Positions 46,677-55,464 of a DNA stretch of 64,000 nt are shown here, in pieces. Position numbers and translations under genes: made by a program. The notes beneath the pieces are model-generated. The model was given only the letters and a program-made list of their open reading frames with translations. It was not told the DNA's origin and ran no database searches. The first letter of the stretch is position 1. Each line of letters starts with the position of its first letter. Where the stretch lies: assembly GCF_056746865.1 (NCBI RefSeq), contig NZ_CM163382.1; one strand, written 5' to 3'.

Positions 46677-47306
46677 TTATGCCCACTCATTTTTTAACGC
46701 TTGATGATGCAGCTGCAGCCATTGCAAAGCGATGACCGACGCTGCGTTGTCGATTTTCCCCTCTTCTACCCACTGGTATGCCTGTTCCCGGCTTACCACA
46801 TGAACGCGAATATCTTCGTTTTCATCAGCCAGACCGTGAATACCGCTTGCGGTCGTGGCGTCCACTTCGCCCACCATAATTGACGAACGCTCACTGGTGC
46901 CCCCCGGGCTTGCCAGGAAACTTAACACCGGTTTGGTCCGTTTGACTATCAGTCCCGCCTCTTCAATCGCTTCGCGACGGGCAACATCTTCCACACTTTC
47001 ACCCTCTTCAATCATCCCGGCAACCATCTCCAGTAGCCAGGGGGTTTCGCTGGTGTCGTACGCGGCAATCCGAATCTGCTCAATCAGCACAACTTCATCA
47101 CGCACTGGGTCAAAGGGTAGCAAGACTGCGGCGTGACCGCGCTCAAAAATTTCCCGCCGTACCTCATGACTCATTTGCCCGTTGAATAGACGATGACGAA
47201 ATCTATAAAGATCTAATGAAAAAAAGCCGCGATAAAGTGTTTCTCGTGCAATAATTTCTACATCGTTTTTGCCAAATGTAACGGGCAGGTTGTCTGGCTT
47301 AAGCAT
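46677..47306 (-). CDS. nudF: ADP-ribose pyrophosphatase (Nudix)
   Basis: 209 aa; Nudix box G-x5-E-x7-REAIEEAG. Confidence 0.95.
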
Positions 47307-47510
47307 TGTTAATGTCCTGGCACTAATAGTGAATTAAATGTGAATTTCAGCGACGTTTGACTGCCGTTTGAGCAGTCATGTGTTAAATTGAGGCACATTA
47401 ACGCCCTATGGCACGTAACGCCAACCTTTTGCGGTAGCGGCTTCTGCTAGAATCCGCAATAATTTTACAGTTTGATCGCGCTAAATACTGCTTCACCACA
47501 AGGAATGCAA

Positions 47511-48992
47511 ATGAAGAAATTGCTCCCCATTCTTATCGGCCTGAGCCTTTCTGGGTTCAGTTCGTTGAGCCAGGCCGAGAACCTGATGCAAGTTTATCAG
47601 CAAGCACGCCTTAGTAACCCGGAATTGCGTAAGTCTGCCGCCGATCGTGATGCTGCCTTTGAAAAAATTAATGAAGCGCGCAGTCCATTACTGCCACAGC
47701 TAGGTTTAGGTGCAGATTACACCTATAGCAACGGCTACCGCGACGCGAACGGCATCAACTCTAACGCGACCAGTGCGTCCTTGCAGTTAACTCAATCCAT
47801 TTTTGATATGTCGAAATGGCGTGCGTTAACGCTGCAGGAAAAAGCAGCTGGGATTCAGGACGTCACGTATCAGACCGATCAACAAACCTTGATCCTCAAC
47901 ACCGCGACCGCTTATTTCAACGTGTTGAATGCTATTGACGTTCTTTCCTATACACAGGCGCAAAAAGAAGCGATCTACCGTCAATTAGATCAAACCACCC
48001 AACGTTTTAACGTGGGCCTGGTAGCGATCACTGACGTGCAGAACGCCCGCGCACAGTACGATACCGTGCTGGCGAACGAAGTGACCGCACGTAATAACCT
48101 TGATAACGCGGTAGAGCAGCTGCGCCAGATCACCGGTAACTACTATCCGGAACTGGCGGCGCTGAATGTCGAAAACTTTAAAACCGACAAACCACAGCCG
48201 GTTAACACGCTGCTGAAAGAAGCCGAAAAACGCAACCTGTCGTTGTTACAGGCGCGCTTGAGCCAGGACCTGGCACGCGAGCAAATTCGCCAGGCGCAGG
48301 ATGGTCACTTACCGACTCTGGATTTAACGGCTTCTACCGGGATTTCTGACACCTCATATAGCGGTTCGAAAACCCGAGGTGCCGCTGGTACCCAGTATGA
48401 CGATAGCAATATGGGCCAGAACAAAGTTGGCCTGAGCTTCTCGCTGCCGATTTATCAGGGCGGAATGGTTAACTCGCAGGTGAAACAGGCCCAGTACAAC
48501 TTTGTTGGTGCCAGCGAGCAACTGGAAAGCGCGCATCGTAGCGTCGTACAAACCGTACGTTCCTCCTTCAACAACATTAATGCTTCTATCAGTAGCATTA
48601 ACGCCTACAAACAAGCCGTAGTTTCCGCTCAAAGCTCATTAGACGCGATGGAGGCGGGCTACTCGGTCGGTACGCGTACCATTGTTGATGTGTTGGATGC
48701 GACCACCACGTTGTACAACGCCAAGCAAGAGCTGGCGAATGCGCGTTATAACTACCTGATTAATCAGCTGAATATTAAGTCAGCTCTGGGTACGTTGAAC
48801 GAGCAGGATCTGCTGGCACTGAACAATGCGCTGAGCAAACCGGTTTCCACTAATCCGGAAAACGTTGCCCCGCAAACGCCGGAACAGAATGCTATTGCTG
48901 ATGGTTATGCGCCTGATAGCCCGGCACCCGTCGTTCAGCAAACATCCGCACGCACTACCACCAGTAACGGTCATAACCCTTTCCGTAACTGA
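47511..48992 (+). CDS. tolC: Outer membrane efflux channel TolC
   Basis: 493 aa from ATG at 47511 (MKKLLPILIGLSLSGFSSLSQA signal). Confidence 0.95.
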   Translation: MKKLLPILIGLSLSGFSSLSQAENLMQVYQQARLSNPELRKSAADRDAAFEKINEARSPLLPQLGLGADYTYSNGYRDANGINSNATSASLQLTQSIFDMSKWRALTLQEKAAGIQDVTYQTDQQTLILNTATAYFNVLNAIDVLSYTQAQKEAIYRQLDQTTQRFNVGLVAITDVQNARAQYDTVLANEVTARNNLDNAVEQLRQITGNYYPELAALNVENFKTDKPQPVNTLLKEAEKRNLSLLQARLSQDLAREQIRQAQDGHLPTLDLTASTGISDTSYSGSKTRGAAGTQYDDSNMGQNKVGLSFSLPIYQGGMVNSQVKQAQYNFVGASEQLESAHRSVVQTVRSSFNNINASISSINAYKQAVVSAQSSLDAMEAGYSVGTRTIVDVLDATTTLYNAKQELANARYNYLINQLNIKSALGTLNEQDLLALNNALSKPVSTNPENVAPQTPEQNAIADGYAPDSPAPVVQQTSARTTTSNGHNPFRN

Positions 48993-49139
48993 TGACGACG
49001 ACGGGGCTTCGGCCCCGTCTAAACGTAAGGCAACGTAAAGATACGGGTTATCTGCCGCATTCTTCCCCCTTCTCGCTTCAATTTCGACCAGCCATCCTCT
49101 ATTCTGATGGGTATTTACCACTGGTCCCGGAAGACAAAA

Positions 49140-49811
49140 ATGAAACGGACAAAATCCATACGCCACGCATCGTTCCGCAAAAACTGGAGCGCACGCCATC
49201 TGACACCAGTCGCTCTCGCGGTTGCCACTGTTTTTATGCTGGCTGGCTGTGAAAAGAGTGATGAAACAGTGTCTCTCTATCAAAATGCTGACGACTGTTC
49301 AGCTGCAAACCCAGGCAAAAGCGCCGAATGTACCACCGCGTACAACAATGCGCTGAAAGAAGCCGAACGTACTGCGCCGAAATACGCCACCCGTGAAGAC
49401 TGTGTTGCTGAATTTGGTGAAGGTCAGTGCCAGCAGGCACCAGCCCAGGCTGGTATGGCACCAGAAAACCAGGCGCAGGCCCAGCAATCCAGCGGAAGTT
49501 TCTGGATGCCGCTGATGGCCGGTTACATGATGGGGCGTCTGATGGGCGGCGGCGCGGGATTTGCACAGCAGCCGCTGTTCTCCTCGAAAAACCCAGCCAG
49601 CCCGGCTTACGGTAAATATACCGACGCGACGGGTAAAAACTATGGCGCAGCGCAGCCAGGCCGCACCATGACCGTACCGAAGACGGCAATGGCACCAAAA
49701 CCGGCGACCACCACCACCGTTACTCGTGGCGGTTTTGGTGAATCTGTTGCCAAACAAAGCACTATGCAGCGTAGCGCAACCGGCACCTCTTCTCGTTCAA
49801 TGGGTGGCTGA
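49140..49811 (+). CDS. ygiB: DUF1190/UPF0441 family protein, co-oriented downstream of tolC
   Basis: 223 aa from ATG at 49140. Confidence 0.85.
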
Positions 49812-49816
49812 TACCG

Positions 49817-50977
49817 ATGGAAAGAGTCAGTATTACCGAGCGCCCGGACTGGCGCGAAAAAGCCCACGAATACGGTTTCAATTTTCACACCATGTACGGC
49901 GAACCGTACTGGTGTGAAGATGCTTACTACAAGTTGACCCTCGCCCAGGTTGAAAAGCTGGAAGAAGTCACCGCCGAACTGCACCAGATGTGCCTGAAAG
50001 TGGTTGAAAAAGTGATCGCCAGCGATGAGCTGATGACCAAATTCCGCATTCCAAAACACACCTGGAGTTTTGTGCGCCAGTCATGGCTGACTCACCAGCC
50101 ATCGCTTTATTCGCGTCTTGATCTGGCGTGGGATGGTACTGGCGAACCTAAACTTCTGGAAAATAACGCCGATACGCCAACGTCACTGTATGAAGCCGCA
50201 TTCTTTCAGTGGATCTGGCTGGAAGATCAGCTTAACGCCGGTAACCTGCCGGAAGGCAGCGACCAGTTTAACAGTCTGCAAGAAAAGCTAATCGATCGCT
50301 TTGTCGAGTTGCGTGAACAGTATGGCTTCCAGTTGCTGCATCTCACCTGCTGTCGCGACACGGTGGAAGATCGCGGAACCATTCAGTATTTGCAGGACTG
50401 CGCGACAGAAGCTGAAATCGCTACTGAATTCCTCTACATCGACGATATCGGTTTAGGCGAAAAAGGTCAGTTCACGGATTTACAAGATCAGGTGATTTCT
50501 AACCTGTTCAAGCTGTATCCGTGGGAATTTATGCTGCGTGAGATGTTCTCCACCAAGCTGGAGGATGCAGGCGTACGCTGGCTGGAACCGGCGTGGAAGA
50601 GCATTATCTCCAACAAAGCGCTTCTACCGCTGTTGTGGGAGATGTTCCCGAATCACCCGAACCTGCTGCCCGCTTATTTTGCGGAAGATGATCATCCGCA
50701 AATGGAAAAATATGTGGTTAAACCGATCTTCTCCCGTGAAGGCGCAAACGTGTCGATCATTGAGAACGGCAAAACCATTGAAGCAGCGGAAGGTCCGTAT
50801 GGCGAAGAAGGGATGATTGTTCAGCAATTCCACCCGTTACCGAAATTCGGCGACAGCTATATGCTGATTGGTAGCTGGCTGGTTAACGATCAACCTGCCG
50901 GAATTGGCATTCGTGAAGACCGTGCATTGATCACCCAGGATATGTCTCGGTTTTATCCGCATATTTTTGTTGAGTAA
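49817..50977 (+). CDS. ygiC: ATP-grasp protein homologous to the synthetase domain of glutathionylspermidine synthetase
   Basis: 386 aa; similar to C-terminal half of gss product in same window. Confidence 0.9.
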
Positions 50978-51461
50978 TACTGTTCAATATTGCCCCGTTT
51001 ACCGGGGCAATTTATTATACTTCGCAAATCATCACCCCCATCTATATATAATCAATCACATCCATCACTTTTATTTAACATTAATTCCTAATTTAATATT
51101 AAATCGTCATATGTAAGCGATACTGTAATTAAATTAATCAATAAAATCACTTGGTAACCTATTGTTTTATGAGTTTATTTATATCCAACACCGCATCAAA
51201 AATAGATTTAATAATTAAAAAACAATGTCGCTGGGATCACACTACACAATATTGAATATTGTTATTGATATATTGCCCACCTAGTATCGACCAAAAGAAA
51301 ATATTTGTTACAGAGAAATACAAAAATTCTAAAACCAGTAAAAAATATTCATAACGATTATTATTAATACATTTTAATTCACAAAACAAATTTATTAGCA
51401 CCACCTCAACAGTCGATATTCATCATTATTATATATTTGCGTTATATAAGGAGATATATCC

Positions 51462-53258
51462 ATGTTTGATAAATATAGAAAAACTCTGGTAGCCGGAGCT
51501 GTGGCGATAACTCTGGGTTTGTCAGCACCGGGGGTGATGGCAGCAGGTTTTAAACCCGCACCACCTGCCGGGCAACTGGGTGCAGTCATTGTCGATCCCT
51601 ACGGCAATGCACCACTGACCGCTTTGGTTGACTTAGATAGCCATGTCATTTCTGATGTCAAAGTTACCGTCCATGGGAAGGGCGAAAAAGGCGTAGAAAT
51701 CAGCTATCCCGTGGGTCAGGAATCACTAAAAACTTATGATGGTGTACCGATTTTTGGTCTTTATCAGAAATTTGCTAACAAAGTGACCGTTGAGTGGAAA
51801 GAAAACGGCAAGGTCATGAAAGATGATTATGTGGTGCACACTTCGGCCATCGTCAATAATTACATGGATAACCGCTCTATCTCCGATTTACAACAGACCA
51901 AAGTTATTAAAGTCGCACCGGGTTTTGAAGATCGCCTCTATCTGGTTAATACCCACACCTTTACCGCCCAAGGTTCCGATCTCCACTGGCATGGTGAGAA
52001 AGATAAAAATGCCGGTATCCTTGATGCGGGTCCGGCAACCGGCGCACTACCTTTTGATATCGCGCCCTTTACTTTCATTGTCGATACCGAAGGTGAATAC
52101 CGCTGGTGGCTGGATCAAGACACTTTCTACGATGGTCGTGACCGCGATATCAACAAGCGTGGTTATCTGATGGGTATCCGCGAAACACCACGCGGCACCT
52201 TTACCGCTGTACAAGGTCAGCACTGGTACGAGTTCGACATGATGGGGCAGGTGCTCGAAGATCACAAACTACCGCGCGGATTTGCTGACGCCACTCATGA
52301 GTCCATTGAGACGCCTAATGGCACAGTATTGTTGCGCGTAGGTAAGAGCAATTACCGTCGCGATGACGGCGTACACGTCACCACCATTCGTGACCATATC
52401 CTCGAAGTCGATAAATCTGGTCGCGTTGTCGATGTATGGGATCTGACCAAGATCCTCGATCCGAAACGCGATGCACTGCTCGGCGCGCTGGATGCAGGTG
52501 CAGTTTGCGTTAACGTTGACCTTGCCCATGCAGGACAACAGGCAAAACTGGAACCGGATACACCGTTCGGCGACGCGCTGGGTGTAGGGCCAGGTCGTAA
52601 CTGGGCGCACGTTAACTCAATCGCCTATGACGCAAAAGATGACTCAATCATCCTCTCCTCTCGCCACCAGGGTGTTGTGAAAATTGGTCGTGATAAGCAA
52701 GTGAAATGGATCCTTGCGCCCTCTAAAGGTTGGGAAAAACCGCTGGCCAGCAAGCTGCTGAAACCGGTTGATGCTAACGGTAAGCCAATTACCTGTAACG
52801 AAAATGGCCTGTGCGAAAACTCAGACTTCGACTTTACCTACACCCAGCATACCGCCTGGATTTCCAGCAAAGGAACGCTCACCATTTTTGATAATGGCGA
52901 TGGGCGTCATCTGGAACAACCTGCCTTACCAACCATGAAATACTCCCGCTTTGTGGAATATAAGATTGATGAGAAGAAAGGCACCGTTCAGCAAGTGTGG
53001 GAATACGGTAAAGAACGTGGCTACGATTTCTATAGCCCGATTACCTCCATCATTGAATATCAAGCCGACCGTAACACCATGTTTGGCTTCGGTGGTTCTA
53101 TTCATTTGTTCGATGTCGGGCAGCCAACCGTCGGTAAGTTGAACGAAATCGATTACAAAACCAAAGAAGTGAAAGTGGAAATCGACGTGCTGTCAGATAA
53201 ACCCAATCAGACTCACTATCGTGCACTGTTAGTCCGTCCACAACAGATGTTCAAATAA
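51462..53258 (+). CDS. assT: Periplasmic arylsulfate sulfotransferase (ASST)
   Basis: 598 aa with Sec signal peptide; matches remembered AssT of uropathogenic E. coli. Confidence 0.85.
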   Translation: MFDKYRKTLVAGAVAITLGLSAPGVMAAGFKPAPPAGQLGAVIVDPYGNAPLTALVDLDSHVISDVKVTVHGKGEKGVEISYPVGQESLKTYDGVPIFGLYQKFANKVTVEWKENGKVMKDDYVVHTSAIVNNYMDNRSISDLQQTKVIKVAPGFEDRLYLVNTHTFTAQGSDLHWHGEKDKNAGILDAGPATGALPFDIAPFTFIVDTEGEYRWWLDQDTFYDGRDRDINKRGYLMGIRETPRGTFTAVQGQHWYEFDMMGQVLEDHKLPRGFADATHESIETPNGTVLLRVGKSNYRRDDGVHVTTIRDHILEVDKSGRVVDVWDLTKILDPKRDALLGALDAGAVCVNVDLAHAGQQAKLEPDTPFGDALGVGPGRNWAHVNSIAYDAKDDSIILSSRHQGVVKIGRDKQVKWILAPSKGWEKPLASKLLKPVDANGKPITCNENGLCENSDFDFTYTQHTAWISSKGTLTIFDNGDGRHLEQPALPTMKYSRFVEYKIDEKKGTVQQVWEYGKERGYDFYSPITSIIEYQADRNTMFGFGGSIHLFDVGQPTVGKLNEIDYKTKEVKVEIDVLSDKPNQTHYRALLVRPQQMFK

Positions 53259-53275
53259 TTAAGAAGGGAATAAAA

Positions 53276-53944
53276 ATGTCGAAATTAGGGATCTCATCAC
53301 TATTTAAAACCATACTGCTTACCGCAGCTTTGGCTGTTTCATTTACCGCTTCTGCATTTACCGAAGGCACGGATTACATGGTTCTGGAAAAACCTATTCC
53401 GAATGCCGACAAAACGCTGATTAAGGTATTTAGCTACGCCTGCCCGTTCTGTTACAAGTACGACAAAGCGGTTACCGGTCCGGTATCGGAAAAAGTGAAA
53501 GATATCGTTGCTTTTACTCCATTCCATCTGGAAACAAAAGGTGAATACGGCAAACAAGCAAGCGAAGTCTTTGCGGTCTTGATCAATAAAGATAAAGCAG
53601 CAGGTATTTCATTATTTGATGCTAACTCTCAGTTTAAGAAAGCCAAGTTTGCTTATTACGCGGCTTATCATGACAAAAAAGAACGCTGGTCTGATGGTAA
53701 AGATCCGGCTGCCTTTATCAAAACCGGACTGGACGCCGCAGGTATGAGTCAGGCCGATTTTGAAGCCGCGCTGAAAGAGCCTGCAGTTCAGGAAACGCTG
53801 GAAAAATGGAAAGCCTCTTATGAAGTTGCAAAAATCCAGGGCGTTCCGGCGTATGTCGTCAATGGTAAATACCTGATCTACACCAAGAGTATTAAATCTA
53901 TTGACTCAATGGCAGACCTTATCCGCGAGTTAGCAAGCAAATAA
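53276..53944 (+). CDS. dsbL: Periplasmic thiol:disulfide oxidoreductase, DsbA paralog (CPFC active site)
   Basis: 222 aa; signal peptide; CPFC motif read directly. Confidence 0.85.
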
Positions 53945-53958
53945 CAGGGAAACAGGCT

Positions 53959-54630
53959 ATGGGTATTAAGGGAATGTGGAAAGACCTTCGCACTTCACCG
54001 GTGGACACGCTGGTAAGATGGCAAGAACAACGTTTTTTGTGGTTGTTAATGGCCATTGCGATGGGCGCGTTAATTATCCTGGCGCACTCTTTCTTCCAGA
54101 TCTATCTCTACATGGCACCCTGTGAGCAATGTGTATACATTCGCTACGCCATGTTTGTGATGGTTATTGGAGGATTGGTTGCAGCGATCAACCCAAAGAA
54201 CATCATCCTAAAGCTAATTGGCTGCGTGATGGCATTTTACGGCAGCATTTTGGGACTGAAGTTTTCGCTCAAACTGAACGATATCCACCATGCAGTACAT
54301 AATCCGGATCCCGATTCACTGTTTGGCGTACAGGGTTGCTCTACCGATCCAACTTTTCCCTTTAACCTGCCGCTGGCACAGTGGGCACCAAATTGGTTCA
54401 AGCCTACCGGGGATTGTGGCTATGACGCACCAATCGTTCCTGATGGCGTCACACTGAGCAGCACGCAACAGTGGTTTGTGGAAATGTATCAGCAATCTGA
54501 AGGCTGGTATCTGCTACCACCATGGCATTTTATGAATATGGCTCAGGCTTGTATGCTGGCTTTTGGTATGTGTCTGGTGCTGCTGGTCATTATGAGTGGC
54601 GCATGGGCGCTTAAAATCATCAGAGGCTAA
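53959..54630 (+). CDS. dsbI: Membrane disulfide-bond oxidoreductase, DsbB paralog
   Basis: 223 aa; periplasmic-loop Cys pairs CEQC and C...C; multiple TM helices. Confidence 0.85.
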
Positions 54631-54638
54631 CTCAGCAA

Positions 54639-54675
54639 CACCCGAAGCCAGTCGTTCTGGCTTCGGGTTCTTTTA
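54639..54675. terminator. Bidirectional terminator between dsbI and ygiD
   Basis: acccgaagccagtcgttctggcttcgggt hairpin then tcttttatt. Confidence 0.7.
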
Positions 54676-55464
54676 TTAACCTATCTGCACCGACAGCATA
54701 CTTAAACTGCCCATTTCTATACCATCGACCGGAATGGTAATTGGCTCCTGCCCATCCCACGCACCTAAGACATACAACAACGGCAGATAGTGCTCTGGCG
54801 TTGGATTCGATAACGCGCCACCTTCATGGTCGAGATAATTCACCAGAGGATGCTGCTCTACCGGCCCTTGCCACGTCAGATTCGCTTTCACATACTCATT
54901 AAACGACATCGCCCACGGATACGGTGAACTATCACCGTGCCACTTCACCGTACGCAGGTTATGCACCACGTTACCGCTGGCGACCAACATTATTCCTTCA
55001 TCCCGCAGCGCTGCCAGTTTGCGCCCCATTTCGAAATGCCAGGCGGCAGGTTTGCTACTGTCGATACTCAACTGCACCATCGGGATATCCGCTTGCGGAT
55101 ACATCTTAATCAGCACGCCCCACGAGCCGTGGTCAAAGCCCCAGGCTTCTTTATCCAGCGTCACCGGGACCGGCGCTAACAGCTCAACCAGATGCTGTGC
55201 CAGCGCAGGCGAACCCGGAGCAGGATAATGCGTGTCGTACAGCGCCTGCGGGAAGCCACCAAAGTCATGAATCGTGGGCGGCGTCTCCATCGCGGTCACT
55301 CCTGTTCCACGGGTAAACCAGTGAGCCGAAACCACCACAATCGCTTGCGGGCGTGGCAATGTCATCCCCAACTTCTGCCAGCTGCGGGTATACAAATTAT
55401 CTTCCAGCACGTTCATCGGACTACCGTGACCTAAAAACAATGCTGGCATACGTGTTGAAGACAT
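54676..55464 (-). CDS. ygiD: Extradiol ring-cleavage dioxygenase, 4,5-DOPA dioxygenase-like
   Basis: 262 aa from ATG at 55464 (MSSTRMPALFLGHGSPMN...). Confidence 0.9.
   Translation of the reverse strand: MSSTRMPALFLGHGSPMNVLEDNLYTRSWQKLGMTLPRPQAIVVVSAHWFTRGTGVTAMETPPTIHDFGGFPQALYDTHYPAPGSPALAQHLVELLAPVPVTLDKEAWGFDHGSWGVLIKMYPQADIPMVQLSIDSSKPAAWHFEMGRKLAALRDEGIMLVASGNVVHNLRTVKWHGDSSPYPWAMSFNEYVKANLTWQGPVEQHPLVNYLDHEGGALSNPTPEHYLPLLYVLGAWDGQEPITIPVDGIEMGSLSMLSVQIG

Follow-up and report, generated by a model that had tools for sequence, protein, structure and literature searches.

The ygiB-ygiC pair behind tolC in Escherichia coli: a Gss-related amide ligase gene and a candidate promoter for separate expression

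The ygiB-ygiC gene pair downstream of tolC encodes a DUF1190 lipoprotein precursor and a stand-alone ATP-grasp amide ligase, and we investigated it in a 64,000-nucleotide (nt) stretch of the Escherichia coli chromosome (NCBI RefSeq assembly GCF_056746865.1, contig NZ_CM163382.1; this whole stretch is called the window, and positions refer to it unless stated otherwise). The pair beside tolC has already been described, and its presence there as such adds nothing to published knowledge of E. coli. The analysis strongly favours a reading in which YgiC is a ligase related to the glutathionylspermidine amidase/synthetase Gss without a role as glutathionylspermidine synthetase, and in which the known pair is an autonomous envelope-stress module, expressed both by read-through from tolC and from a promoter of its own. 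Accordingly, tolC and ygiBC are not to be treated as one regulatory unit, and their separation matters when polar effects of mutations in tolC, or data from tolC reporters, are interpreted.

YgiC and the synthetase half of Gss

The initial annotation had placed ygiB and ygiC exactly where we find their open reading frames (ORFs), co-oriented with tolC on the plus strand, and had aligned YgiC by eye with the C-terminal half of Gss, noting the lack of the amidase domain. Pairwise comparison bears this out. BLASTP aligned YgiC residues 22-386 with Gss residues 242-619, across the whole synthetase half, at 27% identity over 391 aligned positions (E = 2e-38), and YgiC matches the Pfam family PF03738 (GSP_synth) over the full model (profile positions 1-371 of 371) with 546.7 bits against a cutoff of 29.3. 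PF03738 is present in both proteins, whereas the CHAP amidase domain was found in Gss only, the Pfam scan of YgiC returning no CHAP match. One correction concerns the orientation of the paralogue: gss lies on the minus strand and hence is not co-oriented with ygiC.

Residues R100, D102, E115 and N117 of YgiC are invariant in 27 diverse stand-alone members of the family as well as in 50 family sequences, and they align with R316, D318, E330 and N332 of Gss (UniProt numbering for all Gss residues in this comparison). E184/D185 are nearly invariant in the same 27 members and align with Gss E391/E392. We take these Gss residues to be the Mg-ATP/acyl-phosphate set of the enzyme. The stand-alone family is large, with 3248 cluster representatives at E values up to 0.001, and YgiC orthologues across Enterobacterales are 77-94% identical. 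We conclude that YgiC is a cytoplasmic ATP-grasp amide ligase of common ancestry with the synthetase half of Gss.

The closest known enzymes, E. coli Gss (GspSA) and trypanothione synthetase, have in common with YgiC the PF03738 pre-ATP-grasp/ATP-grasp fold, the R/D/E/N catalytic set and a chemistry in which ATP drives the joining of a peptide carboxylate to a polyamine by an amide bond. The common Pfam family and catalytic residues, together with database names that still read 'glutathionylspermidine synthase family protein', could be taken to mean that YgiC duplicates the glutathionylspermidine synthetase function of Gss and differs from it only by the loss of the amidase domain. We consider this extremely improbable. 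YgiC scores 168 bits against the Gss equivalog model NCBIfam NF007801, far under its cutoff of 882, and the stand-alone clade is always paired with a DUF1190 partner gene, whereas gss is not. Where Gss has S335, S337 and C338, presumably its contacts with glutathione, YgiC has T, T and S. According to papers citing Sui (2012), YgiC lacks glutathionylspermidine synthetase activity and does not produce glutathionylspermidine.

What YgiC does instead is partly known. It is the protein of PDB entries 7UK8 and 7UKA, named 'putative acid-amine ligase YgiC', and Pederick (2023) is cited for crystal structures of YgiC and its relative YjfC and for peptide-spermidine ligase activity of both in vitro. 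The published picture is thus that YgiC is not a second glutathionylspermidine synthetase but ligates peptides to spermidine in vitro. The earlier statement that the substrate of YgiC is not established is outdated for the activity in vitro, and it still applies to the physiological substrate, which a 2025 review lists as unknown for both YgiC and YjfC.

Read-through and a candidate promoter between tolC and ygiB

The tolC-ygiB spacer is 147 nt long. Eight bases past the tolC stop codon it carries a hairpin, GACGGGGC-UUCG-GCCCCGUC in the RNA, with 8 base pairs and a UUCG loop. The initial annotation had called it weak and had noted that no T-run follows; the second point stands, whereas folding gave a free energy (dG) of -18.0 kcal/mol (z = -3.4 versus shuffles), that is, a strong hairpin. 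A terminator scan of the junction returned no intrinsic terminator, and an Rfam scan of positions 47200-51300 (E up to 1) gave zero matches and hence no known RNA element in the spacer. The hairpin and the promoter block described below became visible only by folding and cross-genus alignment. A hairpin follows tolC in every aligned genus, with a different sequence in each, and in Yersinia it is a full terminator with a T-run.

Published Term-seq data for E. coli K-12 list a 'primary' tolC 3' end at 3179628, which by offset from the tolC stop codon corresponds to window position 49024, 5 nt past the hairpin stem. As an intrinsic terminator this end scores 1.32 (threshold 3), and it lies inside a Rho termination region (Rho score 2.16-2.30, significance 1.6e-7). 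In the 800 nt downstream and upstream of it, 107 and 204 reads were counted in the untreated sample (ratio 0.52), and 194 and 161 with bicyclomycin (ratio 1.2). About half of the signal therefore runs on into ygiBC, the loss of the remainder being due to Rho. The hairpin probably stabilises the 3' end of the Rho-terminated tolC transcript. In this the site resembles Rho-dependent terminators that are trimmed to a protective stem-loop: it has a GC-rich hairpin without a U-tract, the 3' end lies 5 nt downstream and read-through is raised about 2.2-fold by bicyclomycin. It differs from them in that the stop is partial and a candidate promoter follows within 100 nt.

The initial annotation had suggested read-through from tolC and had named a strong terminator in vivo as the finding that would speak against it. 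Both views turn out to be right in part. Co-transcription of tolC with ygiBC has been reported (Dhamdhere and Zgurskaya, 2010, as described in citing papers); the K-12 stop is Rho-dependent and partial, and a conserved promoter-like block lies beyond it. A single tolC-ygiBC unit would have no terminator between tolC and ygiB, whereas K-12 has a Rho-dependent 3' end there.

We aligned the spacers of Escherichia, Salmonella, Klebsiella, Cronobacter, Pantoea and Yersinia, and then those upstream of ygiB in Serratia and Edwardsiella (8 genera). Downstream of the hairpin, a conserved block consists of AACGTAAGGCAACGTAAAGAT, then GCTTCAATTT, exactly 17 nt and then CTATTCT. The columns of the promoter core are invariant and the spacing is free of gaps in all 8 genera, Serratia and Edwardsiella included. 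Since the block is also found upstream of ygiB in these two genera, where the upstream gene is not tolC, it belongs to ygiB. The first element of the block, upstream of the candidate promoter, is a CpxR-type box, GTAAGGCAACGTAAA, with one mismatch to the consensus; its second half-site GTAAA is invariant in the 8 genera. By our own arithmetic, about 0.008 matches to this pattern are expected in a 147-nt spacer. In E. coli and Salmonella, the stretch between the box and the -35 candidate (49040-49075) is 10-11 bases longer than in the other genera; an insertion of roughly one turn of the helix would leave the box facing the same side of the DNA.

Reporter data from a related genus point in the same direction. 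According to a Citrobacter rodentium preprint, a ygiB-lux fusion is activated by CpxRA independently of tolC and behaves differently from tolC-lux, and a putative CpxR site lies 91 base pairs before ygiB. In addition, overproduction of BaeR raised tolC 1.9-fold and did not raise ygiB or ygiC. Conservation and the Citrobacter data together suggest that the block may be an active CpxR-dependent promoter in E. coli.

Several points weigh against such a promoter or its importance. A consensus sigma-70 scan misses it, its -35 element being weak. The CpxR-type pattern occurs 5 times in the window, with 3.4 matches expected per 64 kb, and at that scale the box by itself lacks significance. A transcription start of ygiB in E. 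coli was not found in published data, the SMRT-Cappable-seq supplements lacking these genes, and the accessible literature yielded no report of CpxR-dependent ygiB expression in E. coli. Furthermore, in persister-cell RNA-seq ygiB and ygiC track tolC, and read-through may dominate in some conditions. This tracking would also suit a pure read-through operon, in which ygiBC have no promoter, are expressed only as the tail of the tolC transcript at levels that follow TolC, and encode proteins that serve the efflux channel. The three co-oriented genes, the 147-nt spacer without a T-run and the operon reported in 2010 fit that picture as well, but we judge it improbable: it is contradicted by the Rho-dependent 3' end after tolC, by the promoter block kept upstream of ygiB where tolC is absent, by the separate, Cpx-regulated activity of ygiB-lux and by the induction of tolC but not ygiBC by BaeR. 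Moreover, deletion of ygiBC is reported, again via papers citing the 2010 study, to leave TolC localisation, folding and activity unaffected; the same sources state that tolC mutants, already impaired on minimal glucose medium, grow still worse there when ygiBC are deleted.

We therefore prefer two inputs to ygiBC. Transcripts from the tolC promoters would form the first: about half would stop at the Rho-dependent site, their 3' ends held by the strong hairpin, and the remainder would read through. The second would be the ygiB promoter in the spacer, with its weak -35 element and the CpxR-type box upstream. YgiB, as an envelope lipoprotein of the DUF1190 family, would be encoded on the same message as ygiC, only 5 nt separating the ygiB stop codon from the ygiC start. 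Because of the separate promoter and the CpxR-type box, envelope stress could raise ygiBC without raising tolC. The physiological role that we infer for ygiBC fits envelope-stress homeostasis and not efflux itself.

Gene order was followed across enterobacteria by exact-protein look-ups. The order tolC-ygiB-ygiC is kept in Escherichia, Salmonella, Klebsiella, Cronobacter, Pantoea and Yersinia, and ygiBC lie apart from tolC in Edwardsiella and Serratia. We further examined 80 loci collected with the pattern LLE[YFC]NADTP, which leaves out true YgiC orthologues (LLENNADTP) and retrieves YjfC-type relatives, mostly from alphaproteobacteria, plus E. coli yjfC. Among these 80 loci of YjfC-type relatives, none has a TolC homologue near the ligase gene. 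Most have DUF1190 and DUF350 (YjfL) neighbours, often with YjfI and the PspA-like YjfJ, and operons of this type have been described in a comparative study of PspA systems. The two-gene unit thus also occurs without tolC, in other Enterobacterales and in alpha-, beta- and gammaproteobacteria, and its place behind tolC is therefore a lineage-specific arrangement. The functional coupling to the efflux channel that the initial annotation implied is weakened by these findings.

E. coli itself has a paralogous pair, YjfM-YjfC of the yjfIJKLMC cluster (with PspA-like YjfJ, DUF350 protein YjfL and DUF2491 protein YjfK). As in ygiBC, a DUF1190 gene precedes the ligase gene; YjfC is 51% identical to YgiC, with a solved structure (7UK6/7UK7), and the tail of YjfM has SRGGYG and ends in WGG. 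Unlike ygiBC, this pair sits in a PspA-type membrane-stress operon and not behind tolC, and YjfM, unlike YgiB, has an uncleaved-looking N-terminal anchor and no lipobox Cys. In one E. coli strain, the yjf cluster (3070-4140 of that locus) carries a gene for a 356-amino-acid membrane protein between yjfJ and yjfK, which was also seen in 9 other loci and which K-12 is not known to have. In Edwardsiella tarda, the locus away from tolC (4326-9847) has ygiBC convergent with genes for an Orn/Lys/Arg decarboxylase and an amino-acid permease. This decarboxylase-permease pair resembles systems for polyamine production and exchange and is possibly a second hint of a polyamine link.

Further observations concern the sequence just before ygiB. 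An ACA triplet at 49134-49136 lies 6 nt before the ygiB AUG, and published work on MazF reports cleavage 6 nt ahead of the ygiB start codon and 66 nt ahead of that of ygiC. Cleavage at the former site would leave a nearly leaderless ygiB message under stress. A sigma-E promoter (TCTGA, 49103-49107) was considered and rejected, as the pentamer is not conserved and GGAACTT does not occur at the right distance.

The C-terminal tail of YgiB and its possible link to YgiC

YgiB is a clear member of its family, with 187 bits against the Pfam DUF1190 model (cutoff 22) and 404 bits against the NCBIfam equivalog NF008655 (cutoff 223). The DUF1190 plan comprises a basic N-terminus with a lipobox, an acidic four-Cys domain, a hydrophobic stretch (GGSxFMPLMxGYMxG), QPLYR and a basic low-complexity tail. 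The predicted YgiB lipobox L-A-G-C37, preceded by a basic N-region and then a hydrophobic one, agrees with the pattern L-[AS]-[GA]-C of bacterial lipoproteins; an O157 proteome study also lists it as LAGC37E.

Within the tail, the only invariant positions are G32, then R54, G56 and G58 of the RGGFG motif, and G80 and G81 of the terminal Gly-Gly (tail numbering). A Gly-Gly C-terminus was found in 43 of the 51 first homologues. In the set of 80 loci, an ORF with an RGGFG tail stands beside the ligase gene in 71, and 62 of these 71 end in Gly-Gly; the remaining 9 loci are mostly on short contigs. Loci that seem to lack DUF1190, in Bradyrhizobium and others, have an ORF ending in ...SRGGFGSFGH..GG just before the ligase gene. 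We considered whether the terminal GGT-GGC codons of ygiB are kept as the ribosome-binding site of ygiC. This explanation was discarded, since Gly-Gly is retained in divergent operons (16 of 16) and where the gene lies downstream of the ligase gene (4 of 5).

Gss activates the glycine carboxylate of glutathione, and YgiC and YjfC ligate peptides to spermidine; the DUF1190 tail is therefore a candidate substrate or docking partner of the ligase. It is tempting to speculate, though we hold it to be doubtful, that the tail is the physiological partner of YgiC/YjfC, docking through T-x-T-V-x-R-G-G-F-G and having its terminal Gly-Gly carboxylate capped with spermidine or another amine; under stress of the Cpx or PspA type, an envelope protein with a polyamine tag would result. 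Activation of the free carboxylate of Gly-Gly would mirror the action of Gss on the glycine of glutathione. Capping would occur on a cytoplasm-facing tail or before export of the lipoprotein. By analogy, an ATP-grasp ligase that activates the C-terminal carboxylate of a partner may be seen in RimK (ribosomal protein S6) and tubulin-tyrosine ligase; they belong to another ATP-grasp subfamily, and the nucleophile of YgiC would be a polyamine and not an amino acid.

To model a complex, AlphaFold was given YgiC fused through a 30-residue linker to YgiB residues 143-223, with a paired alignment of 24 pairs and 26 unpaired ligases. The ligase part reached a predicted local distance difference test score (pLDDT) above 90 and the linker remained below 40. 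YgiB residues 187-206, which hold RGGFG, reached pLDDT values of 92 and 83 and formed a short strand and a helix, whereas in the tail modelled alone the same stretch had a pLDDT of about 62-65 and no secondary structure. The model supports a predicted contact of the tail with YgiC via the RGGFG motif and not entry of the terminus into the active site.

Two results weigh against a modified tail. The last 11 residues in the fusion model, terminal Gly-Gly included, have a pLDDT below 50. The main objection is topology: the hydrophobic stretch is borderline on the Kyte-Doolittle scale (median 1.19) and is not predicted to cross the membrane on a Hessa-type scale, where the median is +7.1 kcal/mol and no value falls below 3. 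YgiB is accordingly not supported as having a second transmembrane helix, by which the tail would become cytoplasmic, although a cytoplasmic position would suit the charge asymmetry between the tail (median net charge +8) and the Cys domain (-8). Modification might instead take place before export. Microcin E492, which is tailored at its C-terminus before secretion, is a precedent for this.

We lean slightly towards the alternative that YgiB and YgiC have an operon in common and never touch, YgiB being exported as a metal-binding lipoprotein to the periplasm or outer membrane while YgiC, in the cytoplasm, joins peptide and polyamine into a soluble conjugate. The lipobox and the four conserved Cys of YgiB, the name 'metal-chelating lipoprotein' used in the comparative study, the topology prediction and the poorly placed Gly-Gly would all agree with it. 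It leaves unexplained why RGGFG and Gly-Gly are the most conserved parts of the tail in a family almost always found beside a ligase gene, why the tail is strongly basic, and why the RGGFG stretch gains confidence only in the presence of YgiC in the model. The near-universal pairing of the ligase with an RGGFG/Gly-Gly tail makes the tail a specific candidate substrate that is cheap to test. If true, it would represent a new kind of C-terminal polyamine tagging of bacterial proteins, tied to envelope stress.

Feature coordinates and neighbouring sequence

Over positions 47300-51300, the window matches E. coli strain 118UI and other strains with 100% identity; the segment was found in 5425 of 5426 complete E. 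coli genomes. Gene annotation was transferred from a 100% identical RefSeq record (Table 1).

Table 1. Positions in the window of the genes, protein motifs and putative regulatory elements discussed in the text
Feature	Position	Strand	Basis or remark
gss, bifunctional glutathionylspermidine amidase/synthetase, paralogue for comparison	5339..7201	-	ORF list; Pfam CHAP + GSP_synth
tolC, outer membrane channel, upstream neighbour of ygiB	47511..48992	+	transferred RefSeq annotation; Pfam OEP, E 2e-62
Hairpin after tolC, GACGGGGC-TTCG-GCCCCGTC, then TAAACG, no T-run	49000..49019	+	folding; Term-seq
CpxR-type box GTAAG-GCAAC-GTAAA	49025..49039	+	consensus GTAAA-N5-GTAAA, one mismatch; conserved across genera
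Candidate ygiB promoter core, conserved GCTTCAATTT, fixed 17-nt spacer, CTATTCT	49075..49105	+	8-genus alignment
-35 candidate TTCAAT	49077-49082	+	conserved columns
-10 candidate TATTCT	49100-49105	+	conserved columns
ygiB, DUF1190 lipoprotein precursor, 223 amino acids	49140..49811	+	Pfam PF06693, E 3e-55; NCBIfam NF008655
YgiB lipobox L-A-G-C37 (predicted)	49239-49250	+	follows basic N-region and hydrophobic region
YgiB hydrophobic segment, residues 120-142	49497-49565	+	
YgiB RGGFG, residues 196-200	49725-49739	+	
YgiB C-terminal Gly-Gly	49803-49808	+	
ygiC, stand-alone ATP-grasp amide ligase, glutathionylspermidine synthase family, 386 amino acids	49817..50977	+	Pfam PF03738
Terminator-like hairpin after ygiC, ATTGCCCCG-TTTAC-CGGGGCAAT, then TTATTAT	50989..51018	+	terminator scan; stem-loop 50989-51011; dG -15.1 kcal/mol, z -3.6

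Upstream of tolC lies the divergent nudF. For ygiB, the mechanical ORF begins at 49107, and the annotated and conserved start is at 49140. An ORF of 86 amino acids (48992-49252, plus strand) spans the tolC-ygiB spacer and extends into the first part of ygiB. Some data sets still use the old name 'ygiA' for it; judged from the aligned sequences, it is unlikely to be a real gene, because the differences in spacer length between genera break its frame.

Between ygiC and ygiD (50978-54900), the strain studied here carries an assT-dsbL-dsbI block, which encodes an aryl-sulfate sulfotransferase and a dedicated disulfide system; its junction (51000-51399) has a GC content of 26%. In K-12, ygiD is directly convergent with ygiC. 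The sequence 3' of ygiC, the terminator-like hairpin included, is therefore strain-dependent. Finally, two E. coli assemblies contain a 569-amino-acid protein call that joins the DUF1190 protein and the ligase. As ygiB and ygiC are in different frames, such a protein needs a frameshift, and the call is probably a sequencing or annotation artefact, the other option being a rare natural fusion.

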